Part shown: one piece after another, positions 3,331-42,087 of the stretch
Layout of the letters: every line of letters begins with the position of its first letter
Position numbering within the stretch: position 1 is the stretch's first letter
Assembly (NCBI GenBank): GCA_001724265.1
Contig: MEDY01000063.1
Span: forward strand, 62,001 to 112,698
Direction of reading: 5' to 3'
From: Rhizaria sp. SCN 62-66
Taxonomy: Eukaryota
DNA: 50,698 nucleotides
The notes under the pieces: generated by a model
Database searches by the model: none
Told to the model about the DNA's origin: nothing
Seen by the model: only the letters and a program-made list of their open reading frames with translations
Made by a program: the position numbers and the translations under genes

Positions 3331-5439
3331 TCACTCAGTCTTCTAGTGGCTGTGGTTGGCAGCATCGTCCGACTTTTTCGGTCCCCCCGCCGCCGCGGTG
3401 GGCACGAGTTTGTTCATGCGGGCCTTGATCTCGGTGAACTCCCGGCGTGCGCGGTCCACCTCGTCCTTGCCCTGCGGCGTGTAGCCAACGGTCCCGCCCA
3501 GCGCGTTAGCCAGCGTCATCACGAGGCCCGCGGCGTCCCACAGACCCTGCAACAAGAGCGAGAAAACATAACATTGTGGGGTGAGAAATTGGTCGTGTTT
3601 ACTCGGAGTCGAGTATCTGCTTCAAAAAGTGCGTGAATTTGCGTGATATAAACAACTTATACACCCAAATTTAAATATACGACCAATATAGCGTGTTTTA
3701 TGTTTTGGTCGACGTACCTGGTGGACAGTCCAGCGCACCATGGGCATGGGCACGGTCACAGGGACCGGCGCGCCAGAGGGGTCGAGCACGGTGACTGTGA
3801 GGTGCTGGGAGTGGTAGTGGCGCAGCAGCGGCAGCGTCTCCTCGGCGTACGACTGCAGGCGCGTGTGGATGATCTCGGGCGTGTCGTCGCCGCGCTGGAT
3901 CAGATGGCCCTGGCACTGGACCGAGACAACACAGATACAAAATGAAAATATGTGATATAACATGAGTTACAAATGAAATGTTAGGATATAGCAAGTTGAA
4001 TATAAATACATTATCCCAGTAACGCATACGACTGTTGACATCGATGTTCGTTATCAACAAAGCAAACATAGAAATGGCACGTACGTTGTCGCAAATGCCC
4101 TCGACCTTCGGCAGGATGGCGGGCATGAAGAGCTCGTGGCCGTGCTCGTCCCGCTCCACAACGTGCGCCGTGTTGTACCCGTCGCCGCACGTGTCGCACA
4201 CGCGGCGGCCGAGTGCCTTCTTGACGATCACGTCCTCCTTGAGCCGCACCTCGAGCACGACATTGGGCGTCAGCGTGGGGCCAATGACCAGCGACGCGTC
4301 GCGCATCGTCTGGTGGTTAAGCCGCGCCGTCTCGAGCGTGCGGTCCGAGCCGGGCACGGGAGGGCGGTCGGTCTTGCCGCGTCGGGTGACGAGGTCCCAG
4401 ACCCACGCGCCGAAGGTCTGGAACAGTGCCACCGGGTCCTTGCGCTTGCTCATCGTCAGCTGGTGGAAGAGCTTGTACACCGGGTCCGGCTCGGCCGAAG
4501 TGAAGGCCATCGAGCCGGCCGCCTTGTGCTCCGCAACGAGCTTATCCCACTCGCTGCGCAACACCTTGTCGTCGTTGTCCTTCTCGAAGTACGCGCGCTT
4601 ATCGCTACGCTTGTCGCGGGCGGTCGTCTGCAGGTTTGCCAGAAGGCTCTCCAGGAGCGGGGCCTGCGACGCGCGCCGAGGGAACCCGTCCAGGATGTAG
4701 CCCTTGAGCACGTCCGACTGGCTCATGCGCTTGTCCAGCAGCGACAGCACCAGGTGGTCGTCCACGAGCGCGCCCCGCGATGTGAACGACTGCAACTTCT
4801 TGCCTAAATCGGAGCCCGACTTGATCTCGTTGCGGATCAGTTCACCCGTCGAGATCGTGGGGACGCGGAAGGCAGAGGAGAGATAGCGCGCAAAGGAGCC
4901 CTTGCCGGAGCCGGGGGCGCCGAGGATGATGCAGCGGAAGCCCGCGGGCAGGTGGGTTGCGAAGCCAGCGGCCTGGAGATATTCGAGATCAGTGAACGAA
5001 CAAAATAAAACAAACTAGTTAGATTTGAAGAGACAGATCTGCATTGGTAGATATGATACATTCGTGACGCACAGAAAAGATATGGATGCATTGTTATGTC
5101 AAATGAGATGTCAATAGAGAACGATTATCCATAGGTATGTTAGCGTGTTTTGTAAGAACGCACGTGGAGGGTGGGGGGCTTGCTGACGCGGAAGCCCGCG
5201 AGCGCCTCGGCCGAGAGCGACTCCGCAGCGGCAAAGCCGCCGGAGGGAGCAGCAGCAGCGCCCGGCGCGGACGTGGTGAAGCGCGTGGAGCTCGTGGTCG
5301 TGACGGCGGAGCGCGGGGCCGAGCGGGCGGCGGCGTTGCTGCTCAACGAAGACGAAGTGGACGACGAGAGAAGAGTGTTGTTGATGCGTGAAAACGCGCG
5401 CATGGCGTGCTTGGGACGCTGCGAAACAGTGGAAAGCAT
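3331..5439 (-). CDS. Adenylate kinase with Cys4 (zinc) LID and probable mitochondrial presequence; exons 5439-5164, 4972-4085, 3915-3718, 3546-3331 (ends at 3343 if TAG is the stop)
   Basis: IILGAPGSGKGS P-loop, ISTGELIR, GYILDGFPR, LID RRVCDTCG..CDN|CQGHLIQRGDD, and an S/R-rich N-terminus. Three GT-AG introns join in frame. Start codon is uncertain (5439 or 5403). Last exon reads ..CAC TAG AAG ACT GAG TGA. Confidence 0.88.
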
Positions 5440-6308
5440 CGCGATCCTCGTGTTGCACTGTGTGACAGTGTGAGGCAAGAGGGAACGACGGGTCTGCATG
5501 ACGTTTTGATCGAGAGCAAGTGAGATGATGTGAGAGAGGGATTTGAGACGAGGAATGCAACGCGATCATCACGATATCTTCCGTCGTTAAGGAAAATAAT
5601 AACGCCATGCCATTTAAAGAACATGAAAAAGTCAGAACCCAAAATTAGAATTGTTAAGAAGCTCGTCCTGGTACCTAACGCGCTTAAAATAACGTTCCTT
5701 CCAGTCTACAGTGTGGGCTGCGACCTAACTTGAGCCCAGACTGGCTGGTCGACCGATCGACCGACCAACCAAATCGCCCAGTCAGACAAGGCGCACGCGG
5801 ACCGACAGCCGAATCGAACCGAGTGTGGCGAGGCAGACGGGCCAGAAAGATTGCAGAGGGTGAGGAAACGTGGCAACGAAAGCATGTCACGGGACTGCAT
5901 TGCTATCGTAGTGGTGTCAAAGGAGACGTTGATATGCGTACTATTGGTGGTTTTATGAGTGTCCTTTCAATTATGACGTGAGTACTTGCTGTTTTCCAGT
6001 CGATATCTGCCCTGTTAACTTCTGCTTCGACACGGTCACGGTGGTATCGTCACCCTCGCTTTGCTATATCCGTCTCCCATGCGCTCCCTCCACCACTTTT
6101 CTTTTTGTTTTTCGTTGAAAGCAACCTATCAACATGTATATATTTGTGTTATCTTGCTTTTCATTCTGAAATCCTTCTCTACTATCCCCCACACTACCTT
6201 CTTCTCACTCCTTCGTTTCGCTCCCATGCCTCCCCTCCCCTTCGCCCCGGCCCCCCGCGCGCGTCCCCACCGCCTCCGTTCCCTCCCGCACCGCTTTGCC
6301 CGTATTAG

Positions 6309-9300
6309 ATGGCCGCCCCCGCGCGTCCCTCCGGCCCTCCGCCGCCGATCCCCCCCAAGACGGGCCCGCGCCCGCTGCCGCAGCTGCCGCTGCCCGGCTC
6401 GCGGCCCGGCATCGCGCCCCCGCCGACGCCGCTGTCGCCGCCCGCGGCCGCCGCACATCCCACTGCCGGCGCCGGCGCGGGTCCCGGCGCGGGCCCCGAC
6501 GCCGCGGCCGCGCCCAAGGCGGAGCTGACGCCCGAGCAGCAGGCCGCCGCGAAGATCGAGAAGTCGCGCCGCGTCCGCGCCCAGATCGCTAAGGAAGTGA
6601 TGACGACTGAAGTGTCTTACGTCGAAGGCCTCGCCGCGCTTGTCAAGATCGCGATCGATTACCTGCGCAAGAACGAGGTGCTCACCGAGGTCGAGATGAA
6701 TACGCTTTTCTCGCAGGCCGCCACCATCTACACCTTCAACGAGCAGTTCTGCGGTGAGGTCAAGGGCCGCATCGAGACCTACACAGACGACACACAGGTA
6801 CGTCTTAGTCCTATATCCTCTTAAGAGAAGCTATTTTTTTATTATAACAATACTTTGAGCTATTCTAATCCAAGCGGCAACCTTTATTCTTGAACATGTT
6901 GATATAATCGAAACTCATTGTTGCTCATCTGCTGTTTTCTGTCTCTGCCCTTAGGTCGGCGACCTGTTCGTCAAGTACGCGCCGTACTTCCGCATGTACA
7001 AGACGTACGCGGCGAACCACGAGCACGCGACCGAGTTCCTGGACAAGTTCAAGGCGCAGTCACGCTACGAGCCGGCGATGTTGGCGATTAAGCAGAACCC
7101 CCAGTTCCGCGCGCCCGACCTGGCGTCGTACCTGATCATGCCGATCCAGCGCATCCCGCGCTACCGCCTGCTGCTGGCGGACCTGTTCAAGCACACGCCC
7201 GAGGGCCACCCCGACCACGACGCCACTGCCAAGGCGCTAGAGCTCATCGGCGACGTCGCGACCGCCGTCAACGAGGCCATCAAGGGCCAGCAGAACCGCC
7301 ACACGGTGCTGCGCATCGCACAGTCGTTCACGAGCGACCTGGACATCGTGACGCCCTCGCGCCGCTTTGTGCGCCAGGGCACGCTCACCAAACGCTGCCG
7401 CGCGCGCAACATCGACTACGAGTTCTTCCTGTTCAATGACCTGCTCATCTACGCCTCGCGCACCGCCACGGGCAAGAACAAGCTCCACCGCGAAATTAGC
7501 ATCAACAAACGCTTCCTGGTGACGTCGCTCGAGGACGAGCCGCCGAAGCTGATGCACCGGTTCCAGATCGTCAACTCGATCAAGTCGTTCGAGGTGCTGG
7601 CCAGCTCCAAGGAGGAGAAGGAGGTCTGGCTGCTCGCGCTGGCTGAGTGCGTTGCCGAGCAGACGACGCGCATCACGGGCGCGGGCGCCGCGGCGGGGAC
7701 CGCGGGCGCGGCGGCGGCGGGCGACGGCGGGATTCTGGCGCCCGTGTGGCAGAACGACAACACGTCCAGCAACTGCACCAACTGCCGCGTCGAGTTCACG
7801 CTCTTCAACCGGCGCCACCACTGCCGCCGCTGCGGCGGGCTCGTCTGCGACAAGTGCTCCCGCTCGCGCATGTGCCTGCCCTCGTCGCCCAACACCAAGG
7901 AGCGCATCTGCGACGACTGCGTCCGCCTCCTCTCGAACAACAACAACAGCGGCAGCAGCAGCGGTAGCGGCAGCGCGAACGCTGCCAACTCCGCTGCCGC
8001 TGCCGCTGCTGCCGCCGCTGCCGCTGCTGCTGCTAGTGGTGGCCCCGTCAGCCCCAGCGGCACACCCGCGCGGCCGCCGCCGCCCTCGTCGCGGCCCGCG
8101 CCCCCCACCCCGCTCGCGCTCAACAACAACAACAACAACAACGCTGGCGCTGCCGGTGCCGCTGGCTCTGGGCCTGCGCCTGCAGCGGCTCTGTCCCCGC
8201 TGGCGGCCGCGATCGCGAGCAAGGCCGCGCAAATGGCGGCCTCGCGCCAGGCCTCAGCCTCGATGGCGGCCGCCAACAACGCCGGTAACGCCAACGGGGG
8301 CAGCAGCAACGCCCCCGCGAGCGCGGCCGCGACGCCGAGCCGGCCCAGCGTGGCGCCCCCGATCCCGCCCCATAGTAACCGGGCGGGGAGCACCGCGCAC
8401 GCGCCTGCGCTGCCCGCGCTGCCGGTGATCGCCCCCGCCCCCGCACTAATGGAGGGCGAGGACTCGACCGACAGTGAGGAGGAGGAGGAGGTCGCCGAGG
8501 CGCTCCGCAACGAGGCCGAGATCGCTGCTGCCGTCAACAACAACACCTACGGTACGCTCGGCGCCAACAGCGGTGCCAGCGCCGCCAATGGCGCGAACGC
8601 TGCCGCCGCTGCCACTGCTGCTGGTGCTGCGGCTGCGGCCGGCAGCGGCGTCGGCGTGGTCAACGAGAATGGCGAGGTGGTGACCCCCGAGGGCGTCTTG
8701 CGGCCCTACATGGTGTGCCGCGCGCTTTATGCCTACGTCTCCGCACAGCCTGGTACGTGTCTGCAAAATATGAACTGAAATGCAAATGATAACTTGAAAT
8801 GTGATAATGTCATGATATCCCTTTAAAGCGTTATTTTAATCATGATTGCTGTAATTCATAGTTTATTTTATGTCATTATCTTTCTCTGTGTCGATATCCC
8901 TCCAAATTCATCACTTACAAAATCTCGTCGATCTTTGCTATGATCGCACACTGATTGATAACAGGCGACCTGAACTTCTCCGAGGGCGCGATCATCCACG
9001 TCTACGTGCAGGACTCCTCCGGCTGGTGGACGGGCGCGCTGGCGTTCCCGAACCCGGCGACGGGATCGAACGAGCCAGGCATCTTCCCCAGCTCCTACGT
9101 TGTCATGGACGAGCTCGAGAACGCCGGCTACGCGCCCTACCCCTGGCTCTTCTCGGCGCTGTGCGTCGAGGGCGTCGAGGCTTTGGCCGACATGGGCAGC
9201 GCTATGGCGTACCAGCGCGGCGACATCATCTGCGTCTCCTCGGCCGCGGCCGAGTGGTACTTCGGCTACAATCTCCGCGACGGCGCTGAGGGCTGGGTCC

Positions 9301-11638: not shown

Positions 11639-13068
11639 ATGACGGCACGTGAGATTACAAGCCGTGGCCGCGTGCCTTTGACTAGCACGACCTAGGGCTT
11701 CAACATATTCGCCCGCGCCAGCTCCGACTCTGGGTTGTCTGAGTCCCTGTCGAAGTTGAAGGCGGGTGTTCAAGTCACAGTCGATGCCCTCCGGTCCGGC
11801 GCGTTTAAGCCGCCCTCAAAACTGAACAAGCAGCAGATCACGACGACCTGCCGGCTCCCCGAGGACGGCATCGCGCTCATGCCAGGATTCCCCGGGCTGG
11901 ATGCCGGCGATGAGCTCTTCGCAACCAGGGACACGTTCCTGCTCACGGAGCACATCCTAGCCATCCACGAGAGCATCAAGGCAAACGACCTCTCGCCCTG
12001 GACCTCCACGGCGCGCCGCCGCAACCTCATTGCCAACTCGGTTCTTGACGACGCGATCCTGAAGCGCAAATCCGACGCCGAGCCCTACATCGACTACCCC
12101 AACGACGTGCTCGACGCGTTCCCGCATCTCGCCAAGCGCAGGCCGCTGCGCCTCACGCAGCTAGGCAAGTGCATGTATAAGGGCGCGCTCGTGCACGGCA
12201 TTGAAGGCCGCGGTAATTCCACCGCGCTGAACTTTGCGCTCTTCAAGCTCATCGCCCGCGGCACGCCGGTGCTGATCGAACTAGCAGGCCATCACGTCAT
12301 CTACGTGCCGGGTCGCAAGGGCGAGGTCGAAGTGGTGCCGATGGCAAAGCGTCGCAACGACCTCCCGGGCAAAATCTTCGATGTAATCAAAAACAAAAAC
12401 ACCGTGTACGACTTCGACCCGCAGCAGCTGCCGCGCGAGACGGTCAAGGGCAACTACGAGCCTCTGGCCGACGCCGCGTGCGTCATCATCCCCACAGCGC
12501 CCAACGAAACGGCCGGCGAGTGGCGGCACTTCTACGCCACGTGCGCGCCGCTGCTGCGTCTGCATCTCTACGACCTGAGCAAGGAGGAGTTCTACGCCGT
12601 CACGAGCGTAGTCAACCCAAACATCACGGCCGACCAGAAAGCCCACTACCGCAGGTGGCAGGGCACGGGGCTGCGCGATATTGCCAGCAACGACCTCAAC
12701 CGCAACCTCGATCCCGTCTTCCGCGCCGCCATTCTGGCGTACAAGGGGGAGTAGCTGTTGATGTCCGGGTTGAACACGGACCGCATCTTTAGCGCAGACT
12801 GCTCCGAGCGCCACTTCTTCGGGCTGCGGTGGCCCGACGGGATGAGCGACACTCACATGGCCACCGCGCTGCCGTACATTCACCGTGAGACGGCGCGGCA
12901 GATCCACCTTACCATGCGCGAGAACATGCAGGGGGCCCCGGGTACGCTGCGTACAACGAGACCAAGCACCTCATGCGCCCGGATCCGTTCGTGACGTTCG
13001 AGACTGTGCTAGGCCCGATCGAGAAGGAGATCGCGGAGGAGCGCCGCGACGAAGGCGCGCATGAATAA
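11639..13068 (+). CDS. RHS/Crinkler-like divergent P-loop NTPase-fold protein with two in-frame TAG codons (11693, 12752) and an apparent 1-nt frame slip near 12931-12942; possibly a pseudogene
   Basis: GC3-rich coding-like frame from ATG 11639 (or 11570). GALVHGIEGRGNSTALNFALFKL resembles the degenerate Walker A region of RHS/CRN-type NTPases. After GGGGGCCCCGGG the coding-like codon usage moves to the -1 frame (YAAYNETKHLMRPDPF..GAHE, TAA 13066-13068). Family assignment is by recalled resemblance only. Confidence 0.5.
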
Positions 13069-14174: not shown

Positions 14175-19717
<5,543 letters not shown>

Positions 19718-25059: not shown

Positions 25060-25712
25060 GCGGGCGCGTGAGCCTTGCTGACTGTGAGCTGTGCTGTGCG
25101 GTGACTGACGCTGAAGTGACTGGGAGGAGTAGATTGAGTGTGAGGTGAGTTACAAGCGTGCGATTAGTAATACGCACTCAGTTGCTTTGCAGACATGATA
25201 ATCCTTCAAATGCGAAAGATAATTGTGTCTTAATTAACGAGTCACTTTGTGACTTAGTGTGTTTTGTCGCACTTTTGTGGTTACACAAGCAACATAGGTT
25301 GGTGTTGGTGTGACCTTGTTCTGGTCATTTCAGAAAAGTATACTTTTAGTGAATACAAAGCATTGATATCCTACTCAAATTTGAATATTGCTGTTATATC
25401 CCCTTTTTGAATATAAAAGAAGTGTTATTTTTCAATACGTTATCTATTTTGCAAATCTAGCTTTTGCCTGATCCACGAGTATACTAGCTATAAACACATG
25501 GAGGTGCCACCTGTTTTTCAGAATTTACTCGAGCACAAAATGTATCAACATGATTATTTATTATACTGCAGTAAAATATACACAGTTTCTTTTAAAAATT
25601 TATCGCTATAATTAAAACTCATATCAAAACTATCGTATCTTTTGTTAAAAAGTAAATCGCCTCCGCGCCCAGAGGCGGACTCGAAGGCTTGGCGGCTTGA
25701 TTATAACTCGCT

Positions 25713-28700
25713 TCACCACTTGGGCGTGTACATCCGCTCCCCAACCGGTCCACGCTGCTGCTTTACCTCCGCCGCAGCCGCCGCGCCAGCCTGCAGGCGC
25801 GACCGCATCGCCGCGCGTGGGGCTACAGTGTCAGAGCTCATGTTGCTGCTGCTGCTGTAGACGCCGTTGCCGTGCATCGGACCTGAGATAGGGGAGGAGA
25901 GCGAGTCAGCGAGCGACTGCGACGCGCCGAAGCCACTCTTGTTCCCGCCATTCTGCGCAGTGTTCACAGTCGTGTTCGCGATATTACTCTTGGCACTGCG
26001 CGCGTTTTGCTGCTGCTGTGGTTGTTGCGGAGGCTGTTGCATGAACATCGCGTAATGCGCTGCCAGCGGCGCACCAACAGCGCCCGCGTTACTACTAGCG
26101 TTAGCGCTGCTCTGCTGCGGCTGATGTTGCTGCTGCTGTGTCGAGGGACGCGACTTAAACCCCGAAGTCAATCCGCCCTTAGCACTACTGCTGCCGTTGC
26201 CATTGCTTGAGTGTGGGTTGATCGTAGTCATCGTGAGCGGCGGAATCGCTGCCGCGGCCGCTTGCGCCCGCGCTTGCGCGATGATCACGCGGGGGGACTC
26301 GCGGGCCCAAACGCTCCCGCCGCCCGCCGCCGCGCCAATGCCGCCAGCGCTGCCGCCGTTGCTCGTGGGAGCGTGGTTGGCGTTGCTGTGCGGGTGGAGC
26401 TGCGTATGCGTGTAGAGCGAGTTGTGGGCGCCGGCGCCTGTGCCCATCGCGTTGTGGTTTGGCGCAGCGCCAACGCTGGCGTGCGCGTACGCAGGCCCAG
26501 TCGCAGTCGCGATCGCGCTGTTGCCGCTGCCGCTGTGGATGGCAGGCAGCAGCGTGGCGGTGGCGTTGTAGCCGTTGCTGTCGCCATCAGGTGCTCCGAC
26601 GGGGTGACCGTGGGCAGTACTCATGTAGCCCGTATTGGCGGTGGCGCTGGAGTTTGCGCTGGCGCTCGTGCGGACGCGCGTGATCTGGCTCATGGCGCGG
26701 AAGTCGGCCGCCAGCGCAGGCTTGCCGATGGGCAGAGGCGCGAGCGCGGTAACCGCACCGCTGCTGCTGTAGCCCACGGGGAGCGACGTCGCGGCCAGCG
26801 AGCGCGCGCTCGGCAGCTGCTGCTGCTGCGGGCTGGGGCCGAAGCCAATCTGCTGCTGCTGCTGCTGCTGAGGCGGCTGCTGGATACTCGCACTGACAGA
26901 GGCGTTGGCGCTAGCAGGAGAGGCAGTTGCAGGCGGACGAGGTGTCAGCGTGTTCGAGTTAGAGCTCGCGTTGTTGTTGCTGGCGCCCGTTGCGTGGCGG
27001 TGCGTGCGCGTGCGCGCAGCGGCCTGCAGTACGCGCTCGCGGGCCTGCCGCTTCTTGACGAACGCGACGTCCTTGGCCAGACGCTCGTTCTCGGACGCCT
27101 GTTGCAGATAGAGACAAATGACAAAGCAAAATAAAAGAGAAATGTAAGACAATGAGTAGTAATTGAGTGATCGAAAGAAGATAGAAACACGTTTACAATG
27201 ATACAGCAGGAGCACACACATAGTAAAAGAATAATATTGAGCACCATGTTATTTTGATAAGACTGTCGACGTACGAGGTTGTGCACGGCCGCAATGAGCG
27301 CCCCGTGCTGGAGGTTGCGCACGCGCGCAGTGGTTTCCTTCTCCGCGCCCTGGTGGATCAGGTGCACGTTGGCGTTTGCAAAGGCACTGGCCGTGCCGTG
27401 CCAGTGACGCGTAAGCGCCGACACGAGCATCACGCGGCCGTCCATCTGGTACAGCAGCGAGTGCAGCATGTGCATGCGCACCAGGATGCGCTTCTCAGAG
27501 TCGAACACAGACTGCTGCAGCGCGTACTCGCGGCCCAGCGCGGAGGACGACTTGCCCAGCAGCTCGCCCAGCAGCGTCTCGGCGGAGAGAATGCGCTCCA
27601 CGGTCGCCTCGTCCAGCCCTTCAGCGGCAGCAGCAGCGGCGGCGGCGGCAGCGGACGCCGAGCCAGCGGCCCCGTCGGCGTTGGCGTTGGCGCTGCCGCC
27701 GTTGCTGTTGAGGCTGGGGTCGAAGCCCGGGACGCCCTGCCAGTTGAACGGGACGCGCTGGCTCTGGCCGTCGTTGTCACTGTCGCTGCCGCTGTCGCCT
27801 GCGCTCCCGCTCGCGCTGGTGGCCTCGCCACTTTTGGAGTTGTCGTTGTCCGCGCTGCTGGTGCGGCGGTGCGCGCGGCGGCGGCTTGACTTCGACTTGC
27901 CCTTGGCTGCGTCGTCGTTGCTGTTGCGCGGCGATTGAGGGCGCATGAAGCGCGGCGGGTCGGCGCCAACGCACTTAGAAGGCGGGGCGGGCACGCCGGC
28001 ACTTAGACTGGCTAAGTGGGCCGCGCGCAGCCACTCGGCTTCGGCCTCGGCCTCGGCTTCGTCGTCGTCCTCGTTCTCGTCGTCGTCATCGTCGTCATCT
28101 TCGTCGTCCTCATCAGTGTCCGCATCGTTGTAGTTGTAGAAGTCGCCGTCGTCGTCCTCAGCAGCTGCGCCGCTCACGATGAGTGCACTTGGGGCCGCGC
28201 TAGCGCCCGCGCCAGCGCTGGGACCCGGGAGAGTGGTGACCGTGGTTGTAGTCATGGTCGTCGTCGTCGTCGTCATGCTCACAGTCACCGCGTTCGCGTT
28301 GCCAGCGCCGCTACTGCTCGCGGTTGAAGCAGCGGCGACCTTGCTCGCGGGCGTGCTGTTCACCGCATTGTCGCCGTTGCTGCTGCTACTCAGCGCGTTG
28401 TCGATGTCGCTACCAGTCGCCACCGTGTTGTTGCTGTTCGGGTTGGTGTTCGAGCCAGCGACGGTGTGGGCGTTGTTGTTCGCGGTCGTGGCCGTGAGTG
28501 TGAGCGCAGCGCCGTCCAGCCACGGCCGCGTGAGGCTGCCGCGGTGGCTTTGGCTCACTCCGCCGCTCAGCCCGCCGGCGGTGCCGCTCGCGCCAACGCT
28601 GGGCGTGACGTTGCCGCCGTTGCCGTTGCCGTTGGCCATGGTGGCGCGCGAGGGGGTGCGCGACGGCGACTGGGACGGCGGCCGCGACTGCGCGTGCCTG

Positions 28701-31700
28701 CTGCTGCCGCCGCCGCCGAAGACGTGGGTACCAACAGGACTGATGACGCCCGTGGGAGTCGTCGAGCTGCCGCCGGTCAGGTGCGATTGCGACGGCTGCT
28801 GCTGCAGCGGGAGCTGCGCGAAGCTATTATTGTGGCTGCTGTTGTAGCTCGACGTGAGGTGACCGTGGGCACCATGCATTCCGTGTCCGTGCCCGTGCCC
28901 CCCGAACCCCGCCGATGACACCGACGGCGTCAGCCCCCTGCCTGCGCCGGCTCCGGCGCCGCGCACGCGCCCGCGCTCCCTGTCGCGCTCGCGCTCGCGC
29001 TCACGGTCCTCGCGCGCTTTCATCTTGGCCGACGCGGCCGCCGCGGCAGCGCGCGCTTCGGCCTCGGCCTGCGCCTCCTCGCGCGCCTTGGTGGCGGCGC
29101 GCTTGGCGACGGCCTCCGCGGTGGCCGTGTCGATCAGGCCGAGCTCGCGCATCACCGTGCGTGCGCGGCCGCGGCGGCGCAGAGAGTCGACCCAGCGCAG
29201 CCTGTGAACAAGAGTAGTGACGAGGAGTTAGAGGCATACATGAGCGAAATTTGAGACACATGCGAATTAACACGCGTTGCGTTATGATGTGATTGTGCAG
29301 TTGTGGGGGAATAATGTAACGTACCTGGCTTCCATGCCAGTGTCTTTGCGGCTGCGCGTATGCTCCGAGAGCTGCGGCCGCAGCGACAGCGGGTCGCGGC
29401 ACGCGTACGCGCGGATGCTGGCGTCGAGGCGCGTGATGAGCGCCAGCGTGGCGGTGAAAAAAAGTCCGAGCTGCTTGCGAATGCGGTGGAACTTGAGGAA
29501 GAAAGAGCCCGCAAAGACGAGCAGAACCTTCTTGAGGCGAGCAGCCTGTTGATGCAGAAAGTGTAAAGCAAAGTTAAGACCAGATAGGTTTGAAGCACAA
29601 GATGTAAGAATGAGGGACTAGAAACAGATACACGTATATTACGCGCCAGTGCAGTTGAATTATACAGATTATGGCCACCGCAATTTGGTGCGCGCAATTT
29701 TGAGTGCGTACCTGTTCGCGCTTCTCGATGTGGACTGCGCAGAGGAGGTAGAAGCGGCGGTCGAGCTTCTGGATTTGGCGCCGCTGCGCCAGCAGCTCGC
29801 CCTGGGCTAGCTCCCGGGCTGCCACGGCGGCGTCCTTCTCGCTCTCCATGCGCATCAACTCGCTGTGAGCAAGACAAAACAAAACAAAGCAAGACGACAA
29901 TACAGAACGATCGTGAGGCGACTAGAATAAAACACATTTCATGCCGCCGCGTGTTATAATAGAATACGATCGGAATAGACTAAATTGAAGATAGATGCAG
30001 AGTAAGCATATTTAAATCGGAGTATTATAAACATATTTGTTCATTTTTGATGCACCATATCACGTACCGTGCGAGCCTGGTCTCCTCGGCCTGCGCCTGC
30101 GTGACGAGCTCGAGCCCGCGGAGGAACTTGCCGTGCGCCACGAGCTCGGCCTCGCGCGACTTGCGGCTCGCCGCCAGGTGCTCCGCGGCGTTCTTCTCCG
30201 CCGCCTCGACCAGCGCGGCCGCGTCCGCCACACTCGCCGCGCGCGCAGCGCGGGCGTCCTCGCTGGCCGCGGCCGCGGCCGCCCGCGCCGAGGCGAGCTC
30301 CGCCCGTAGCGCGGAGGCCTCGGCGCCCCGGTCGCGCCGCGCGAGCGCCAGCTCGTGCCGCAGCTCGCCCGCAGCCTCGGCGCCCGCCGCGGCGTCGGCC
30401 TCGGCGGCGGACGCGCGCGCCAGCGCCGCCGCGAGGTCGTCCTTGAGCTTGCGCTCGCGGCGCTCTCCACGCTGCCGCTGCTCTTCCAGCCGCGCGAGCT
30501 CGGCGGCGTGCGCGGCGCGCTCCGCCCGCTGCTCCTCGCGCAGGAGCGCCAGCTGCGCCTGCAGCTTCGGGGCAATGCCCAGCCCGCCGCCGCGCGCGAG
30601 TGAGAAGGCGGCCCAGTCGACGTTTGTTGCGCCGGGACCTTCGCCGGCGCCAGAACCAGTGCCGGCGGCAGCCGACTTGCCCGCGCCATCGGCGCCGCTC
30701 AGGTCGCTGGCGATGTTGAAGCCCGAGGCTGAGGCGGCCGAGGTGGGGGAAGTTAGGCCACCCTGGTTGCCGAATAAGCCGCTCAGCGTGGTAGCCGAGT
30801 TGTTGGTGCCGCGGTTGGTGTTCAGCCTCGCAGCACCCTGTTGTTGTTGCTGCTGCTGCTGTTGCTGTGGGTGGTGTTGCGCAGGGGTACTTAGATGTGT
30901 AAGTGCCGGCGTGAGCAACGGCAGGTGCGAGTACTGGTTCAAGAACGCTGGCCGCGGCTGCGGCAGGTTGGTCGCGGCCGCCAACGACGACTCTAGAATC
31001 GCCACGGTGGCGTCCGCGGCGTCGGCGTCGGCGGCAGCGGCGGCGGCAGCGGCGGCGGAGAGCGACGAGGGCGTCGCGGGCGGGGACCCGTTGCTGCCGC
31101 TGCCGCTGCCGCTCCCGCTGACGACAAGGGCATTGCTGCTCGAGCCAGAGCCAGAGCTCGAGCCAGAGCCTGCGGTGCTGTGGGTGTGCGAGGCCGAGGC
31201 GGCGGCGGCGGCGAGGCGCGCGGCGGCCAGCGCGACGCGGAGGCGGGAGATCACTACCACGGGCTCGGGCGCGTACAAAAACGGCAGCTCCGTGCTCTTG
31301 ATGCCTCCACCGTGGTTGCTGTTGCTGTTTGCAGAGTAAAGCGCGGTGAGGCGCGTTTGCAGCAAAGGCTCGAGGCCCTGGGGCACAGTCATGCTCACGG
31401 TCACGTTGAGGTTTGCACTAGAAGAGCTAGCATTGCCGTTCGCAGCGGCGCTCGCGGCGTTGACAAAGGCCAGCGCGAGCCCGGTCAAGTGGCCAACGGC
31501 GGCGTTGTTCGCATTACTGCTACCACCGTGCATCAATGAGGACGCGGTCTGACTTTGGTTAGTCAAGCCGCCGCGCGGCCTGATTTGCCGGTTCGCACTC
31601 GTCCCACGCGGTGTGAGCCGCTGCTGCTCGCGGTCAGCGCTGCGCTCGCGACTGCCGCTGCGGTTCGCGTTGGCGTACGCGTTGTTGTTGGCGGACGCGT

Positions 31701-34700
31701 TGTTGTTGGCGTTGGCGGCGTTGTTGTGGTGGGAGCTGATCGTGGACGCGTCCGGGAGGGGCGGCGGCAGCGACAACACGGAGTGCGGCGAGAAGCCCGG
31801 CATGGGCGCGTTCAGGCTGCTGTTCGCGCCCGCGCCACCCGCGCCTGAGACGCTCTCCGTGTCGTCGGCGGTGATGCCGGTGTTGCCGTTCTCGTCGTCG
31901 TTCGCAGTGACAACTTGGGGCACCGAGTTGATGTTGATGCCGTTGTTGTTGTTGTTGTTATTGTTGCCCGCAAAGAAGGTCTGCCGCGCGTTGTTGCTGA
32001 CGCTGCTGCTTTTGTTGCTGTCGGGGTCGTTTGAGTCGCTGGCGTTGTTCGCGGTGTTGCCGCCGCCGCCGCTGGTGTTGTGCGGGTCATGGTCGTCGAC
32101 GGTGACCGTGAGCCCCGTCGTCAGCGCGCGGTTGCTGCTCGCGGAATTTATACCCCCCGCGGCGACCTTAGACCCGCTGCCAGCAGCAGCCGCGGCGCTG
32201 CCGCCACTGCCCGCGGCCGCAGTCCCGCCCGTGGCCGATGCCCCTGCGGCAAGCGCCGCAAGGCCCACGGAGCCGGTCTGGCGCCGTGCGTGGCCGCCCC
32301 TGCCGCGCGCGCTGGCGCCGGCACCGGCGCCGCCGCCGAGGGTGTTTGAGTTCGTGGGGGGCGTGGGCAAGCGGCCCTTGCCGAAGCCGCCGGCCATGTT
32401 CGCGATGGCGTTGGCGGTCGTGTTGGAGGCGGCCGTGGCGGCGGCGGCCGCGGCGGTGGCGGTGAGGGCGTGCGCGAGGGCCAGCGTCCAGGGGTTGCTC
32501 ACAGTCATGCTCACACTCACCCCAGTTGCAGCACTCGAGCCTGAGCCTGAGCCGGAGCTAGAGCTAACGTCGTCGCTGTTGCTGGCAGCGTCGACGGAGG
32601 GGCTGTGCGGCGAGTCCGCGCGCTTCTGCTGCTCAGTGTAAGCGTCCTGCTTGTACTCGAGGTCGCGCAGCCGCGAGCCGCGGACGACGGCGGGCGCGGA
32701 TGAGGCCGAGACGAGCGAGGTGAGCTCGGAGACCAGCGCAGTCGTCAGCTTCTCCTTCTCCTCCTGCTCACCCACACTCGCGCTCGCGCTCGCGGCGGCG
32801 GCCCAGGCGGTGGTCTTCTTGGCCCTGCTACCGCCGCCCGCGCCGGCGCCGGGCAGCGCGGGCGTCGTGTTGGTCGAGCGCGGGGGGAGACCGGCGCCCG
32901 TGCCGGTGACGGAGTTGAGCCCGCTGGCCGAGGGGAGCAGCAAACTAGAGCTGGGGTTGGCGGGGTTAAACGCGGGGGAGCCGTTGCCGCTCATCGGGAC
33001 GGGGGACATGATGCCGCTGTTGGTCGAGCCGCCCACAGTGTTATTGTGACCAGAGGTGCTCACGGCCGCGTCTCCCTCAGTCAGGCCACCAGCGGTGCCG
33101 TTGGGGCCGACGAAGGACGACGACGACACCGCGCCGGAAGTGTGGCCGCCGGCGCCGACACCGAGGGGCGTGGGCGTGGGCGCAGCGACGCGCAGACCGA
33201 GGTTGGGGGAGCCGCGCTTGCTGTTGAAGCTGCCCACACCGCTGCTGTTGCTGCCACTGTTCGCGTCGCCCTTGTTAGCACTGTTGTTGTTACTGTTAGC
33301 TCCGCCAACAAGGTTGCCGGAGCTATTGTTGTGGGTTAACGTACTGTTCATACCGGTGCCATTCGGGTTAGAGATGCGGGACAGCGCGCGCTTGCCCCAG
33401 ACGAGAGCCTTGTTACGCAAGTCCTGAAACGCTACAACAGCGGCCGCGACCTCGGCCTCGGCCTCGGCCGCCTCGGCCGCGGCGGCCCGCAGCAGCGCCG
33501 CAAACAGTGCGGGGTACAATTGCTCAATGCTGGCAATATCGCGGTAGGCCAACACCGCGATGTGGCAGTCAGACTCGGCCACAACGTCGCACGCGCGGCG
33601 CGGCTTAAGTTTGGGACTGGAGGCCGCCGCGGAGGCGGTTGAGTCGGTTTTGTGGTGGTGAGGCGGCATCGACGACGACGCGGCGACAAGCGCACTCGAG
33701 TTACTTTGCTGAGCGCTGTTGGTTTTGCTGTTGCTGTTGCGGTAGTAGTGGTAGCCGCCGAAGCCCATCACGCGGCCCAAAGGCACAACGAGCACTTCGG
33801 ACGATGAGTTGCTTGCACTGGGGCCAGCAGCAGTCAGAGTCGCCGGATTCGCTGCGGCCGCCGTCGCTGTCGCAGAGCTGCTGCCGGCGATCGCACCCGC
33901 ACCCGCACTCGCGCTGCTGCTGCTGCTGCTGCTGCTGATGCTGTTGCTTGAGCTGCTGGAAGTGCGCTGGAGAGCGATCACACTGCCTGTAAGAGGAATG
34001 AAGGCGAAAGTCGCGACGTCGCCGTACTTGCACACAGTCTCTCCGGCCCGTAGATGGATGACCGTGAGCAGGCGCGAGAGAAGCGCGGCTAAGGGGGCCT
34101 CGGTCGCATCTAAGGGTCCCTTGGACGCAGACAACGGAGAGCCGCTTTCAAAGCCGGCGTCAGAACTGCTGTTGCTGTTGTCAGAGCTACGGGTCAGGTT
34201 GAGCGCGGTGGCCAAAGGCGAGGGCTGGCCCGAGGAGCCCCTTAGACATGTAAGTGCGTCCTTGAGCAGCGAGAAGACGACCGCCTCCGCCTCCGCCTCC
34301 GTCTCAGCAGCGCACTTGTCCTCGCTCTCCTCATGCGCGCCGTGGCTGCTCTCCGCCGCGCTCTCGCCATCCTGCGCCTGCGGCTTCACAGTGTGGGAGA
34401 ACAGCGCGGGCGCGAGCGAGTGCGGCAGCCACTTGACGAACAGGTCGCCCCGGTTGACGCTGAGGCCGGCCAGCGCGCCTGTGGCGACAGTGTGGGCGGG
34501 AAACGACGCGGGCAGCGGGAAGTTAAGCCGCGACGGGGCGACGTTGAGCCGCCCGTTAGAAGAGTTCAGCCTGCCTTGGTTGCTGCTCGAGCTAACAGTC
34601 GTCGTCATATTATTGCCCGTTGTCGTCGTCGTTGTTGTCACAGTCATCATCATCGTCGTCGTCGTCGTCGTGCTGGTGGTGGTGGTGACTGTGCCGGCGT

Positions 34701-37700
34701 TGCTGAGCTGTTGCTGCTCGTGCTGCTGCCACAACGCGCTGCCGATGTGATCACCGTAGAAGCCGCACATGTTATTGCTCCAGACGTCAAGCCCGCTCCC
34801 GGTGCCGCCGAACGCGCCGTTCGCGTTGGCGGGGTCAACCGCGAAGCCAAACCCGCCCATGGACAGAAGCGCACCGCCGTTGCCGGCGTTGGCGCTGCTG
34901 CTGCTGGCGGCGGTCGCGGGTGACGACAGAGGCGAGAAGTGCATTGGCAGCGCGCTGCTCTTAGTGTTGGTTGTGCGCCTCGGGTTGACCGCGCCACTCG
35001 TATTGCCAGTCGTGGTAGGCGTGATACCCACGTTGGCGTTGGTGTTGCTGCGCGTGTTGGTAGCGTTGAGAGCGCTCGTCGACCGAGGACTCGCCAGCCC
35101 ACCGCCGCCGCCGCCGGCGCCGCCGCTGGCGTGCGCGTGCGGGTTGGGGGCCGGGCTCGGGGACAGACCGAGCACCGACGACGACACGGCGCTGCTGTGG
35201 CCGCCGCCGTGCACGTTGCCGCTGCCGCTGGTGTGCGTGCCCAGGGACGGGGGGCCGGGGGTGTACGAGTAGTGCTGCCCGCCGGGCCCCAGTCCGCCCG
35301 AGATCGACATCCGCCGCTGCGCAGAAAGCGACATTGCATTGGGAGCGTTGATCGTGCCGCCCGCGGCGCCCTTGTTATGCGCGGCGGCGGCGGTGGCAGC
35401 GGCGGTAGCGGTCGTGACGGCCGCGGAGCCGCGGCGGCCGGCGGCGACGGCTGCGGGCCGGCCCCGGACAGCGCTGCCGCCCGCAGCGCTACTGCCGTGG
35501 GCCGCGCCGTGCGCGTTCGCAGCACCCGGGGTGGTGTTACCGTTGTTGCTGCTGTTGCTGACGAGCGCGCTCGCGTGCAGATTGCTGTGGCTGCTGAGGT
35601 GGCTGCCGCTGTTGTTGTTGGCGAGCGGGGTGCCTGCGCTCGACTGGCGCGAGATGACTCCACCCTTGGCCAATGTAGACTGCGCCGCCGTCGGCGTCCG
35701 GTTGCCGGCTGACGAAGTCGCCGCGGTGGGCGAGTTGCCGTGGGCGGGGGAGGACGGCTTCGAGGGGGGGCCGTGGGTCGGAGAGGTCGGCTTCGAGGGG
35801 GGACCGTGGGCAGGAGAGGTGGCCGGAGAGGAGAGTCGGGAGCCTGCACTCGTGCCACGAGCCGGCTTGGCTTTCGTAGGGCTGCTGCTGCCGCTGCTAG
35901 CGTTCGCATTTACGGTCGCAGCCGCATTGGGGGTTCTAGAGCGCGTGCCCACAGCGTCGTCAGCCGCGCTGGCGTTGACGTTCACTCTAACAGCAACATT
36001 TGCGCTTGAATTAATGCTCGCGCCCGCAGTGGGATTGGGCGCAGTGTTGTTTGCGGTGCTGATCCCGATAGGGTTAGTGTTGTTGGCGTTGTTGTTGATT
36101 GACTTGGTGATGTTGAGGACAAGGTCAGCGTCGTCGTCGTCATCGCCATCGTCATCGTTGGTATCACTGCTATTGTCGCCGTCATCCTTGTTGATCTTTG
36201 CAGGCGCGCTCGCGTAGAGGGCGTTTGCCGTGCCCAGGCTGCTGCGGGTGCTCATCGCTCTCGCCGTGTCGCCGTCACCAGCAATCGCGCTCGCGCTTGC
36301 ACTCGCACTGGCGCTGGCACTGGCGCTCAGGATAGCGCCCGCCTGCGGGTTCAGAGTGTTGGAATCGTTGTTGGTGTTGGTGTTGTTGTTCACCGCCTTG
36401 CTGTTGCTGCTGCTGCTGCTGCTGCTGCTGTTGCTGTGGCTGATGCTGTTCGTGCTGACTTGCCCCAGCGTGCTCACGCTGTCCGAGCTCGTCAGCCGGC
36501 GCCGGCGGCTATTTGTGCTGGCGTTCTTGCTCGCGCTCGCGCTACGGTTGCTAGACCCGACCGCGTGCATCGTCGCCCTCAGGTGGTTGCGGCTCGCGGT
36601 CTGACTCGCGCTATGACTTTCATCGTCGTCGTCGTCGCCGTTGTCGTCGCCGGCGTCGTAGTGGTGCATGTCGTCGTCGTTGTCGTCAGCGTTGTGCGCG
36701 CCGTCCCCGTCGCCCTCGTCGCTGCTGTTGAGCGCGTTGTGGTTGCGGAGACTGAGCCGGTTCGTCGTGAAGATGCTGCCGCGGGGCTTGCGCAACGCAT
36801 CACCGTTCTCGGCCTTCTCCGTCTTCTCAGCGGTGTCAGCCGCAGCCGGCGGCTTCACGTTGTGGTCGACAGCCTCGTCGATAATGAGAGTGTGCTTTTC
36901 AGGAGTTGCCGCATTGTTAGTGTTGTTGTTGTCGGCCTCAGTGGGAGCCTTGGCGGCCTTACCAGCGCTTGAGCCACTGCAAACACTGTTCTTGTCGGCG
37001 TTGGCGTGTGCTTCAGCAGCAGCATCAGCCGTGTTCGCGAGCTCGCTGTCGACGACTGCGACAACGGGGGTGTTTGCAGTCGCACCATTCAGGTGAGCGC
37101 TGTCACTGGCACTGACATGCGCACTGACATGTGCGCGAGCACTGGCGTTGTCGTCCTGACTATGATTGCGACTGGAATTGGATGCGACTGCTGCTGCGGC
37201 ATCAGCGTCGCCGTCATCTCTCGCACTGGCGCTCGCACTGCGGTTAGCTGCAGCACTTGCACTCGCACGGGCACTGGCGCTGGTGCTGGCGCCGTCACGG
37301 ACTCTCGCAGCAGCACTGGCGGCCTCAGCAGCGCTGTTGTTGTCTGCGGCGCTTGCCTTAGCAGCATCGCTGGCATTGACGGCATCACTGGCGCTGACAG
37401 CAGCGCTGCTATGGTTGCCGTTATGCTTTGGAGCGAGGTCGGTGGCATTAGCATCGCTGCTAGCGCTGTCGGCAGCGTCCAAACCAGTCCCTGAGGCAGC
37501 GTGAGCAACTCTAGTGTTGTCGTCGTTGCCCTGATTACGGCCATCGTCGCCATCGCTGTAAATGTAGCTAGCATTGCTGTTGCCGTTCGCGCTCGCGACG
37601 TCATTGTTCTTGTCCTACTCGTCCTCATTGACTCCGCTCCGACTACCCGGGCCGTCGGCGCTGTCAGCCTGCGTTTGCGCCTCCGCCTCCGCCTCCGCGT

Positions 37701-38943
37701 CGTCGTCGCCCTCGGTCTCGGCGAAGCTGCCCAGGTTGCCGTTGCTGCCGGTGGTGTTGTTGTTGTGGAGAGAGTGCGAGTCGTCCGACAGCGAGATCGA
37801 CGACCGTGTCGTCGGCTCGGGCAGCGCCGCCAGAGAGGGCCGCGGCATCGCGAACGCGTCCGCCAGAGAGCCATCGGCGAGAGTGGACGAGGACTGCGAG
37901 GGCGATGCCAACAACGACGACGAGGACGGGAGCGGGGGCGCGAGCAAGTGCTGCTGCTGCGACTGCGCTGAATTAGCGTGGGTATCCATGTGCGCATCAA
38001 CAGTAGCATCAGCATCAGCGTCAGGCGTTGCCTCGGCCTCGGCCTCGGTCTCGGCATCAGGCTCAGCTTCAGGGGCAACAATCGTGGCGTCGTCGTCATC
38101 GTCATTACCGTTGATGTCAGTGTCATTGATGTTATTATGAATGTTATTGTTGTTGTTGTTGGGCACAAAGGAGTGCAGAGTGATGTCTTGCGCCGTGGCA
38201 GTCGCATTGCCAGCCATGACAGCAGCGGAAGTCGCCGTCGCCGCCTCAGCCGTGTCAGACGCAGACTTCGCCTCCGCATTAGCCTCAGCATCTGCCTCCG
38301 CATGAGCCTCAGCCTCAGCCTTAGCCTTGGGCTCGGCCAAAGCCTCGGGCTCGGCCAAAGCCTCGGGCTCGGTCACAGCGGCAGCGACAGCGGCAGTCGC
38401 AGCGTCCGCCTCAGGCTCGGCTTCCACAGCAGGCTCGGCATCAGACTCATCAGCTTCCACGTCAGCCTTCGACTCGTGCTCAGGTTCAGGCTCAGCATGA
38501 GCCGCAGACTGAGTCTCCTCATCGTCGTCAGCCTCAGTCTCAGCCTCTGCGTCGAGGTTATCGGTGGCAGTTGCAGCTGCAGAGCCGTCGCCGACTCTGT
38601 CGCCCTTGTGACTGGCAGTAGCGCTGGCAGCAGAAATAGCAGCAGCTTCGGTCGCGTCCCCGGCGTCGGCGTCCGCAGCGTCAGCTGACGCGCCGTTGCT
38701 GTTGTTGTCAGCGTTGCTACCGACTTCGTCGTCATCATTAACTTCTCTGTTGTTGTCGTGGCTGCCGTTACGAGTGCGCGCGGCAGAAAGCAACAGACGC
38801 ACGGCGCTGCCGCTATCGCGAGCGCTCACATTGGTAGCAGCGACATCAGCGTCAGCATCAGCAATCGAGGCAACCGCAGGAGTGGCGACTGAGGCAGAGG
38901 CTGGGACTGCCTCGTGTTGGGAAGGTCCCGGTGAGTCAGACAT
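25713..38943 (-). CDS. Giant (~4,186 aa) low-complexity A/S/N/G-rich protein with a cyclic-nucleotide-binding-like domain and C-terminal coiled coil; exons 38943-30068, 29862-29712, 29545-29325, 29201-27275, 27098-25713; one in-frame TAG at 37615-37617
   Basis: ORFs 37615-38943 and 30025-37482 share a frame and are separated only by one TAG plus 44 sense codons. Four GTACG-AG introns join the downstream exons in frame (12,561 nt total). cNMP-like segment IHLRAGETVCKYGDVATFAFIPLTGSV..G..RRACDVVAESDCHIAVL at ~33500-34075. Ends TGA. Confidence 0.72.
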
Positions 38944-40166
38944 CGCTCAAAGCGGCTTGCTCACGCAAATGATGAACACAAGCGTAAAAGGCCTAGCTGT
39001 AGGTTCAGAAAACAGTCAAAAAGAAAGCGTATGGGCAGTGAAATTCAGGAAAAAGCAAGCTTGGTCTGAGAGAGAAGCTGCTGGGGCAGAGAGGGACGAG
39101 GAGGGGGCGCAGAGAAGGGGTTAGAGTGAGACTTAAGGAAAATAAAGGAACACAATTAAAATGAAAAAGAACAAAGAGTACAATACTTGAAATGCGGGTT
39201 TGTTGACGAACAAAAAAGCGCGATAGAGGTTCCTAAAGTTGCTGCGACTGGATTGCAGAGTAACTGCAACGGACTGGGTCACGGTCACTTTGCTGGCGCC
39301 GACTGGCGAAGATGAATCGAACACGAATAGAACGAGTCAAGACTAACGTTGTTTGAATTAAAACGTAGATTTATACATTTGTAGAACTGTTTATTGATCA
39401 TATTAAAACGACTCACTTTCTATATCAAAGAACAAATACGTCATCACCATAGAGAAACAAAAATAATCAAAGCCCACCAAGCACATTGCGCGTGTGCTTG
39501 GAATATACTTTAATAGTACGTCTTATCTTGTTGTTGTTGTTGTGGTTTGCCCGACATTATTAAGCGTTGCCATAGCCGTTGTTGTTCGTTCCATAGGGAG
39601 TCGTCGCATCAGTAAAGCAGCAAGTAGCAAACAACATCAGAGTGAGTTGCGTGATAAGGACGACACCTCTCGTGCCGTGTGACTGCTGCTCGCGCGCTGT
39701 TGTGTGGTTTGTTGTTCGTACAGTGCTGAACCAAACAATCTAAGTAACGTATAGCACTGACACACCAGGAACAACAGAAGCGAGAAATTACGGCTACATA
39801 ATCCGATTGCGACCGCGCCTCAACGCTCCCCCGCTCGCGTCCCATTCGCACACCTACCAGTGAACACGAATCGAACGCGTAAAAACAAACAACACGACAA
39901 AACAACGCTCACTTGCTGATTTTCCGCCCGTTTCTGTTGTGTGTTATATCTTGTCTTCATGTTTTCTTTTCTTTTGAACTTATATTTTACACTCTCATAA
40001 CCTCCGTTGTCGGGTACAGTCTCTTGACAAGGCAAAAAACTCACACAACTCAAGACTTAGGCTTTACACTAGTGCGTTATAGCGATGCCATGAGTCCGAC
40101 TTGCTGTGCGTGTTTACCCCTATCTCCACGTAAGTACCCCATAGACAGTCTAAGTATCCTGTGCGC

Positions 40167-42087
40167 TTAGATGAAGCCGTCGTCATCGAAGACGTTGTCG
40201 TCGAGGGCGTCCTCGAGGGTGGCGAGGTCGAGCTTGTAGCGCATGATGCCGCCGATGCCACCGAAGCCCTTGCAGAACTGGGAGCCTTCCTGGGACTTGT
40301 CGCTCACGAAGGCGATCTTGGCGCCGAACGACTTGTAGTTGTTCGACAGCCACTCGACCATGAGCTCCTGTGTAGTCGCGATGGTGCGCAAAAGCAGAAA
40401 ATGAGACATATAAATGAGGTGAGTTAGATTCACGTAAAGGATTTGTTGTTGTTGAAAATATCATTGTTGACATTGAATACACTCGAGAGTAATTTAAGCA
40501 CGACTAATACACATTTTGGCTCGTTTTAGGACATACCTGGTCGACGAGGTCGAGGGCGACGTCGTCGGCGGTCTTGAAGAACGAGGGGTCGCGGGTCTCC
40601 TCCTCGTTGTCGACGATCTTGATGACCGTAGCGCCGGTCTCCTTGTTGCGGAGCTCGAAGCGGATCATCTCGAGCGCCTCCCAGACGATGATGGTGTCGA
40701 CGGCCGAGGCCTCGAGCGCGTTGAGCGTGTCCTTCCAGCCGAAGCAGTAGAGACCAGTGTCGCGGGAAATCTCACTGAAGAAGTTCGTCAGCAGGGTCTT
40801 CTCGCGCATGAACTTGACGTCGCGGAGGGAGTCCGCAGCCATGTCGATGGCCTGTGGGGAAAGGGTTCGGAAGCGAGAGATGTGTGAGTAACAGTTGCGA
40901 AATACGATATAACACAAGATGAACACATACAATACATTAACCAATAAATACTACGACAAGATAATTGCAAAGGGATTGTGCGTACCTGAGCGAAGCCGTT
41001 CTCGCCGCCGTATGAGATATCGACGATGTTGAGGATGATGTTCTGCAGACGGGGGTCGAAGGTATTAGCCTCGGCGAGCTGGGCCTTGAAGTCGGCGGAA
41101 CCGGCGAGAATGAGGCCGGCGACGTTGGGCATGTTGTTGGTGATGAAGATCTGCGTGGTGAGCTCGGCGACCTGCGTGATGTAGTTCTGGCGCTTCTCCT
41201 TGCGGATACGCGCGAAACGGGGCGCGGACTGACCACCACGGCCGTGCTTCTTGGGCAGGTCGACGGAGATCTTCTTGAGCACGACGCGCGCGTTGCCGGC
41301 GAGCGTGCCCCAGAGAGTGCCGGAACCGTCCATGATGATGAAGCCGTACTTCTCGTCGTCCTCGAGCAGGCCGCGGAGCGCCTCGGTGTGGAACTGGTTG
41401 TCGCACATGTACATGGACGTGTTGATGGGCTTGAAGGGCTCGACGTCGATCGAGACCTTTTTCTACTTGCCGTCGGAGTTGAGCACTTCACCGCAGTACA
41501 GGATGAGGCCGTTGTTGGGGATGCGGGGGAAGAGCTTGAGGCGCTGCTGGACGGACGTGATGGCGGACAGCACGGAGAGGCGGTTCACGCGGGACTTGAT
41601 GTTGGAGGCCTTGGAGTACTCTTCCGTGAGCATGGTGGAGATGCGCGAAACCTGTTCCTTGGGGGGAACGACCAGGGAGATAACGGACGAACCATTGCTG
41701 TAAAGTCGCGCAAGGAAAACAAGAGTACGGGAGCGAAGGCGGACGAGATCACGGGCGCAGAGTGAAAAGCGGGAAGTGTAGGGAGGAAGTTTGGTTGGGG
41801 TGGACAGGGGATGGAAAATTAGAAGGGAAGAACGCACAAAAACAGAGTGCGGGGAGAAATACAAGGAATAATAAAGTGAGTTCTACTGCGCAATGTATGT
41901 TACATAGCCGATTGGCGGGTGATACGAAGCACAGGAAAGGCGCAAAGCGCGGCACGAGAGAGGTTGAAGGGCAAGGAGAGAAGACGGACCCGCGCGCAGC
42001 CTCGAGGTTGCGAATAAGCTTCTTGAGCTTCCATTGCTCAATAGCGAGCTCCTCAGGATCGAGGTTATGAGGCTTCTTAACGGACAT
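40167..42087 (-). CDS. ETF1: Eukaryotic peptide chain release factor 1 (eRF1), 441 codons, with in-frame TAG at codon 111; exons 42087-41990, 41697-40986, 40851-40537, 40367-40167
   Basis: [75 protein letters not shown] (GGQ), [10 protein letters not shown] and [16 protein letters not shown]. Three GT-AG introns join in frame. Ends TAA. Confidence 0.97.

Follow-up and report, generated by a model that had tools for sequence, protein, structure and literature searches.

The window analysed here is a stretch of 50,698 nucleotides (50.7 kb) of contig MEDY01000063.1 (positions 62,001 to 112,698, forward strand) from the assembly of Rhizaria sp. SCN 62-66 (GCA_001724265.1), and the subject of this report is a set of TAG codons that lie in frame within its genes, foremost within the gene for the release factor eRF1. 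The DNA comes from an uncultured eukaryote, is GC-rich (GC 0.50–0.70 per 2 kb) and carries about a dozen genes, which are cut by AT-rich introns of 134–292 bases that frequently start with GTACGT. Those recognised code for eRF1, adenylate kinase, alanyl-tRNA synthetase, a RhoGEF-PH-FYVE-SH3 protein, a WD40 protein, a DnaJ protein, enoyl-CoA hydratase and a radial-spoke-head-like protein. Metagenomes of bioreactors, wastewater and activated sludge, dating from 2015 to 2025 and belonging to several studies, contain the stretch. An earlier note, made from the sequence alone, had listed five TAGs as sense codons. All five are present, and three of them are secure as internal codons, namely those in eRF1, in a giant low-complexity protein gene and at position 12752 of a gene for a P-loop protein (gene 5), while the one at 11693 is undecided and the one at 3345 could equally be a normal stop.

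The eRF1 gene and its internal TAG are placed as follows.

40167–42087, minus strand: eRF1 gene, with exons 42087–41990, 41697–40986, 40851–40537 and 40367–40167, ending in TAA (40169–40167)
41463–41465, minus strand: in-frame TAG of eRF1, codon 111, in the context GGC AAG TAG AAA AAG

Spliced from the ATG at 42087, with its three introns taken out, the eRF1 coding sequence comprises 441 codons, encodes NIKS and GGQ, and finishes with the terminal TAA. The TAG at codon 111 is its sole internal stop, and is flanked by the Pfam domains eRF1_1 and eRF1_2, one on each side. Over positions 25500–45000, the window was compared with contigs of four runs (X3 and X4, DNA; X5 and X8, RNA). A DNA contig of X3, which comes from another study, covers 40351–41976 with no differing letter, and the same is true of an X5 RNA contig (41101–41697, depth 24.7) and of a polyA RNA contig of X8 (41035–41686); all three keep the TAG, which is also found in L001, a locus from another metagenome. 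The X5 contig joins 41697 to 41990 across a 292-base GT..AG intron, and a second X5 contig skips 40367–40535, so that these contigs represent spliced RNA and support introns 1 and 3 of the gene model. The TAG form of the gene turns up in runs from 2015 to 2025, in several studies, and is spliced in RNA. The eRF1 UAG is therefore present in both genomic DNA and spliced mRNA, and its occurrence in independent DNA and RNA contigs excludes sequencing error and RNA editing at this site; the RNA contigs retain the UAG, and a collinear RNA contig rules out an intron covering the codon.

Codon 111 is equivalent to Glu107 of human eRF1 (an offset of +4), and the claim of the earlier note that the TAG sits at a conserved Glu is borne out. 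The column is Glu in all 77 readable sequences among 79 other loci (GAG in 49, GAA in 28), the remaining two being unreadable at an intron edge, and in 96% of the 120 database eRF1 proteins among the matches listed. Identities to those 120 matches are just 65–70%, with no close relative among them. A contig of a close relative in run X4 has C for A at 41465, giving GAG on the coding strand. With GAG in a near relative, a single G>T change suffices to turn the ancestral Glu codon into TAG, and such a step would be silent only if UAG specified Glu. In all, 30 variant letters are listed in the eRF1 exons, of which 28 are synonymous third-position changes, one replaces E by D, and one is the TAG to GAG difference. 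No GAG copy of eRF1 at 90% identity or more was found in X3, where contigs can drop variants.

Some further features of this gene and its relatives may be recorded. The codon following the TAG (41460–41462, minus strand) is AAA, a rare Lys codon (14 AAA against 140 AAG in the training set described below), and the GAG-bearing relative has AAG there. Run X4 shows two different alternative letters at each of positions 41139, 41160 and 41220 (within 41061–41465), so that the sample contains, besides the TAG lineage, two or more close relatives, whose differences from it are nearly all synonymous. From the eRF1 exons a spliced RNA contig of X5 extends to 39418 (39418–40166, minus strand), which suggests a 3' untranslated region of some 750 bases or more for eRF1. 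A metagenome scan with eRF1 gave L001 (1,626 bases) as the single close match, the next best being 74% identical, and scans for more DNA of the organism returned best matches of 70%, 64% and 65% among genome contigs and of 60% among viral contigs.

The protein departs from other eRF1s at distinctive positions. In a set of 81 sequences, the window and L001 are the only two with GSS, where 75 others have GTS and four are unreadable. SKAS-NIKS is likewise confined to these two, others mostly having GTAS (65) or GTAT (7), as is YMCDNQF, where others mostly have YLCDNKF (34) or YMCDNKF (25). In the comparison with the 120 database eRF1s, 122 of 235 columns reach 95% conservation or more, and the window eRF1 carries the majority residue at 111 of these. 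The eleven departures consist of the TAG column and ten substitutions, five of which are M34V, G57S, T58K, L124M and K130Q (human numbering); of the other five, three are conservative replacements in the M domain and two fall at further sites of the N domain. Such overall conservation speaks against decay, yet in and beside the motifs that read stop codons the sequence is altered.

The second internal TAG lies in a gene that is recognisable mainly by its codon usage.

25713–38943, minus strand: giant low-complexity protein gene, of several exons separated by AT-rich introns, drawn from the codon log-odds map and dips in intron GC, with a TGA end (25715–25713)
37615–37617, minus strand: in-frame TAG of the giant gene, in the context GAG GAC GAG TAG GAC AAG

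The codon log-odds used to score coding potential came from a training set of 3,864 codons in long exons, which included the flanks of eRF1 and excluded the giant gene and gene 5. Counting stops between long open frames gives no discrimination in DNA as GC-rich as this, and scans of third-position GC content alone are confounded by antisense frames. The giant gene has roughly 4,000 codons, and its product is rich in Ala, Ser, Asp and Asn. The 443 codons from its ATG to the TAG score +136.8, and the 315 codons from the TAG to the next in-frame ATG score +123.7, with the other two frames at -181 or lower. An X3 contig (37377–38614) that covers the TAG is identical to the window, so that in the contig check for GAG or CAG errors the TAG is kept here in X3 and at the eRF1 site in X3, X5 and X8. 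An intron over the giant-gene TAG was ruled out, the surrounding sequence being neither AT-rich nor bounded by GT..AG. The protein context of the codon is acidic (NEDE_DKN). A Pfam search with the giant gene gave no family at threshold and one sub-threshold cNMP-binding match, and a protein search across its TAG returned nothing at E<=1e-5.

Two further TAGs belong to gene 5.

11640–13068, plus strand: gene 5, coding for a P-loop protein with homologues P0003, P0124 and P0127, ending in TAA (13066) past a frame slip
12752–12754, plus strand: in-frame TAG of gene 5, in the context GGG GAG TAG CTG TTG
11693–11695, plus strand: TAG at the 5' coding boundary of gene 5, with negative log-odds upstream and positive log-odds downstream

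The homologues P0124 (44% identity), P0003 (37%) and P0127 (29%) span the TAG at 12752 in ungapped alignment and continue for about 60 residues past it, including a well-matched GLNTD block. Database proteins from other assemblies are split at the same place: P0002 (99% identical) stops exactly before this TAG, and P0125 (100% identical) starts just past it. The TAG at 11693 separates non-coding from coding sequence in the same way as a control TAG at 21191, in the 5' leader of the radial-spoke gene. No ATG occurs from 11693 to the conserved block, so that translation starts either at 11640 and reads the TAG, or further upstream in an exon not seen here; in the first case the TAG is sense codon 19, counted from the ATG at 11640, and in the second it is part of a 3' splice acceptor (...CCTAG/G). 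The label of RHS-like gene given in the earlier note did not hold up in a Pfam search, which returned no family at E<=0.01, RHSP and RHS_N included. Language-model feature matches (0.96 to a cluster with RHSP in 12% of its members, and 0.90 to one with RHSP in 98%) make an RHS/Crinkler-type NTPase a lead to the identity of gene 5, not a statement of membership.

The fifth TAG stands at the end of the adenylate kinase gene.

3331–3345, minus strand: end of the adenylate kinase gene, TAG AAG ACT GAG TGA, with coding sequence upstream and non-coding sequence downstream

This TAG is either an ordinary stop, or a sense codon with a TGA three codons on. At the ten other gene ends the next in-frame stop is 1 to 29 codons away, so a second stop at three codons is unremarkable. 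The adenylate kinase itself (3343–5014, minus strand) has a long insertion between core and lid, and its C-terminus is extended by about 65 residues that match no Pfam family.

Ten gene ends in the window are unambiguous, six with TAA (2858, 13066, 14175, 20307, 40167 and 45846) and four with TGA (10203, 25057, 25713 and 44709); nine of these had been claimed before and are confirmed, the TAA at 13066 being added here. None of the ten is a TAG. The 8,272 codons of confident long exons, a tally that left out one exon set with a frame problem, contain three TAG, no TAA, no TGA, 318 GAG and 38 GAA, and scans for stops with coding sequence on both sides likewise found no in-frame TAA or TGA, in agreement with the earlier claim that these two codons are absent from coding sequence. 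The low usage of TAG noted before also stands, at about 1% of the GAG count, with the number of secure sites corrected from five to three, spread over about 12 genes. RNA folding downstream of the three internal TAGs gave no stable structure (z = 0.09 for eRF1, and -0.31 and 0.28 for the others), and no sequence context common to the TAGs was found.

UAG thus occurs inside at least three coding sequences, that of eRF1 among them. On balance we favour a sense meaning for UAG, probably Glu, with UAA and UGA most likely kept as terminators. Glu is the best guess, resting essentially on the eRF1 site together with the acidic context in the giant gene; the homology argument of the earlier note is upheld by the eRF1 column, but it does not extend to gene 5, where no consistent residue aligns. 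A tRNA with the anticodon CUA would deliver the residue, most simply a derivative of tRNA-Glu(CUC), and the changes T32S, M34V, G57S, T58K, L124M and K130Q in eRF1 may weaken its recognition of UAG. Thr32 forms a bond with the G of UAG, L124M is among the four changes of a human eRF1 mutant that reads only UGA, and a disturbance of the YxCxxxF loop is predicted for K130Q (PMC5304391 for the first and PMC3632111 for the other two). The very low usage of UAG could reflect a reassignment that is recent or still disfavoured and costly, or a dual stop and sense state. Since eRF1 is completed only if its UAG is read through, an efficient UAG-recognising eRF1 would limit its own synthesis, and a regain of UAG recognition would shut that synthesis off, which would lock the change in. 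The full scheme, an early-stage reassignment of UAG to Glu with UAA and UGA still stops, which is self-locking because the codon occupies an invariant Glu of eRF1, is put forward tentatively, and we regard it as somewhat less probable than its opposite.

Several observations weigh against a sense UAG. Usage of the codon is far below that in known reassigned codes, no tRNA gene was detected in the window by ARAGORN or Rfam, and only one of the three internal TAGs (eRF1) lies under a conserved column. In the homologues of gene 5 the column at 12752 holds R, L and D, and is too variable to be informative on the residue. The same gene has a one-base frame slip at 12925–12940, in a G5C4G3 run, past which the -1 frame carries codon bias, resembles the C-terminus of P0003 and ends at TAA 13066; P0125, from another assembly, has the same slipped tail. 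Gene 5 may be a pseudogene, and the RHS/Crinkler-like family that it resembles is rich in these. The absence of TAG from the ten gene ends has a probability of about 0.06–0.1 if TAG ended 20–25% of genes and, from the codon counts, about 70% of random nonsense mutations would yield TAG, so that the TAG-only pattern is not significant alone. At the adenylate kinase end, the log-odds are +24.6 over the 60 codons upstream of the TAG and -26.4 over the 60 downstream. Enrichment of the eRF1 substitutions within the strict motifs is not significant (2/12 versus 8/109, p=0.26), and becomes so (5/17 versus 5/104, p=0.005) only with motif windows that were widened by one residue post hoc. In vitro, T32S alone leaves the activity of human eRF1 largely unaffected, according to the available text of PMC3632111.

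Some of these points would suit a code in which UAG still terminates, yet a natural suppressor tRNA or a leaky eRF1 lets it be read through often enough to be of use, so that rare internal UAGs are tolerated at an intermediate stage, short of completed reassignment. The rarity of the internal TAGs, the loss of coding signal at the adenylate kinase TAG, and the mildness of the eRF1 motif changes (T32S being near-neutral) all fit such a state; we nevertheless judge it unlikely, as none of the ten unambiguous ends is TAG, suppression at an essential eRF1 codon would need to be efficient, and the adenylate kinase end is equally well explained by a sense TAG followed by TGA. The standard code, with the TAGs as plain nonsense mutations, would make gene 5 a pseudogene, the giant gene a truncated one and this eRF1 a dead but transcribed allele or paralogue, backed by a working eRF1 at some other locus. 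Gene 5, with both a TAG and a frame slip, gives this some colour, as does the bias of nonsense mutations towards TAG under the codon usage of the window, and a second, more divergent eRF1 copy beyond the window is possible, which is a further point against a sense UAG. It would, though, leave 3 of about 12 genes broken in an otherwise clean contig, in which every frame change except the gene 5 slip is an AT-rich GT..AG intron, and it is hard to square with an eRF1 that holds the majority residue at 111 of 122 conserved columns, differs from its relatives at synonymous sites in 28 of 30 cases, and recurs in its TAG form for a decade (2015–2025) across studies, spliced in RNA, with no GAG copy at 90% identity or more found in X3, where, as said, variants can drop out of contigs. 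For these reasons it is rated lower again than a dual meaning of the codon.

A programmed readthrough specific to eRF1 is very unlikely. The UAG would then be an autoregulatory sensor of termination, and the other TAGs unrelated lesions; the clearest TAG does lie in a release-factor gene, and autoregulatory parallels exist in the frameshift of bacterial RF2 and the readthrough and nonsense-mediated decay circuit of plant eRF1-1. A conserved device of this kind is contradicted by the GAG of the close relative which, with the lack of downstream structure (z = 0.09) and the differing contexts of the TAGs, makes site-specific programmed readthrough improbable; two other genes also have internal TAGs and, at a site where Glu is invariant, insertion of Glu by near-cognate readthrough would, to our knowledge, be unusual. 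Least credible of all is an error of sequencing or assembly, a G>T change turning GAG into TAG. Each TAG is one substitution away from a common codon, as this would require, but the eRF1 TAG recurs in contigs of three other runs from different studies and in L001, which refutes a sequencing error there, the giant-gene TAG recurs in X3, and P0002 from another assembly ends exactly at the TAG of gene 5.

Among the other genes of the window, that for alanyl-tRNA synthetase (14175–18325, minus strand) bears long low-complexity inserts, and an Atlas look-up of one of its exons places it in bacterial-type clusters; the enzyme may be organellar. The radial-spoke-head-like gene points to a flagellate or ciliated cell. 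Introns have a GC content of 0.2–0.4 against GC-rich exons (for example 16356–16435, 6798–6950 and 8753–8975), a sharp contrast that could aid gene calling and binning in this lineage.

Nuclear reassignments of UAG only have been described in the rhizarian exLh (UAG=Leu) and in Iotanema spirale (UAG=Gln) (PMC5304391), and UAG is Leu or Gln in phyllopharyngean ciliates (PMC11687900), as far as the available text of these sources goes. The window organism would resemble all of them in having UAG as sense and UAA and UGA as terminators, and differs in that Glu, not Leu or Gln, is suggested. Alterations of eRF1 at or near stop recognition are a possible further likeness, with T32G in Iotanema and L69A in exLh compared with T32S, T58K, L124M and K130Q here, whereas single genes of exLh contain several in-frame UAGs (both from the portion of PMC5304391 at hand), compared with three in the confident codons of the window. 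In Condylostoma, Parduczia and the karyorelicts, codons are ambiguous between stop and sense (bioRxiv 10.1101/2022.04.12.488043, in the part available). A dual meaning would be shared with these codes if the adenylate kinase TAG terminates; unlike in them, only UAG would be affected in the window.

Among codes in which UAG is Glu is the peritrich code, NCBI table 30. Others are those of Oligohymenophorea sp. PL0344, where UAA is Lys and UAG is Glu (PMC10553269), and of Blastocrithidia nonstop, where UAR is Glu and UGA is Trp (PMC12153298). The code suggested here is like these three in that UAG=Glu is one anticodon change from tRNA-Glu(CUC), but in all three UAA is also reassigned, whereas in the window UAA ends 6 of 10 genes and is never in frame. 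In the available parts of PMC10553269 and PMC12153298, UAG=Glu is known only together with reassignment of UAA, and a literature search found no report of UAG=Glu with both UAA and UGA kept as stops, which is not proof of absence.

Gene callers that use the standard code split the genes of this organism, as seen in P0002 and P0125. Few nuclear codes give UAG and UAA different meanings, and in the literature found, as far as its available text shows, UAG is Leu or Gln only (PMC5304391, PMC11687900). The in-frame UAG and the motif substitutions of this eRF1 provide testable variants for the selective loss of UAG recognition, which is of interest for genetic code expansion. If the interpretation is true, UAG=Glu with both other stops retained would be a new code table, in a GC-rich non-ciliate, and the very rare usage of the codon would offer a natural view of an early, supposedly deleterious stage in the capture of a stop codon.

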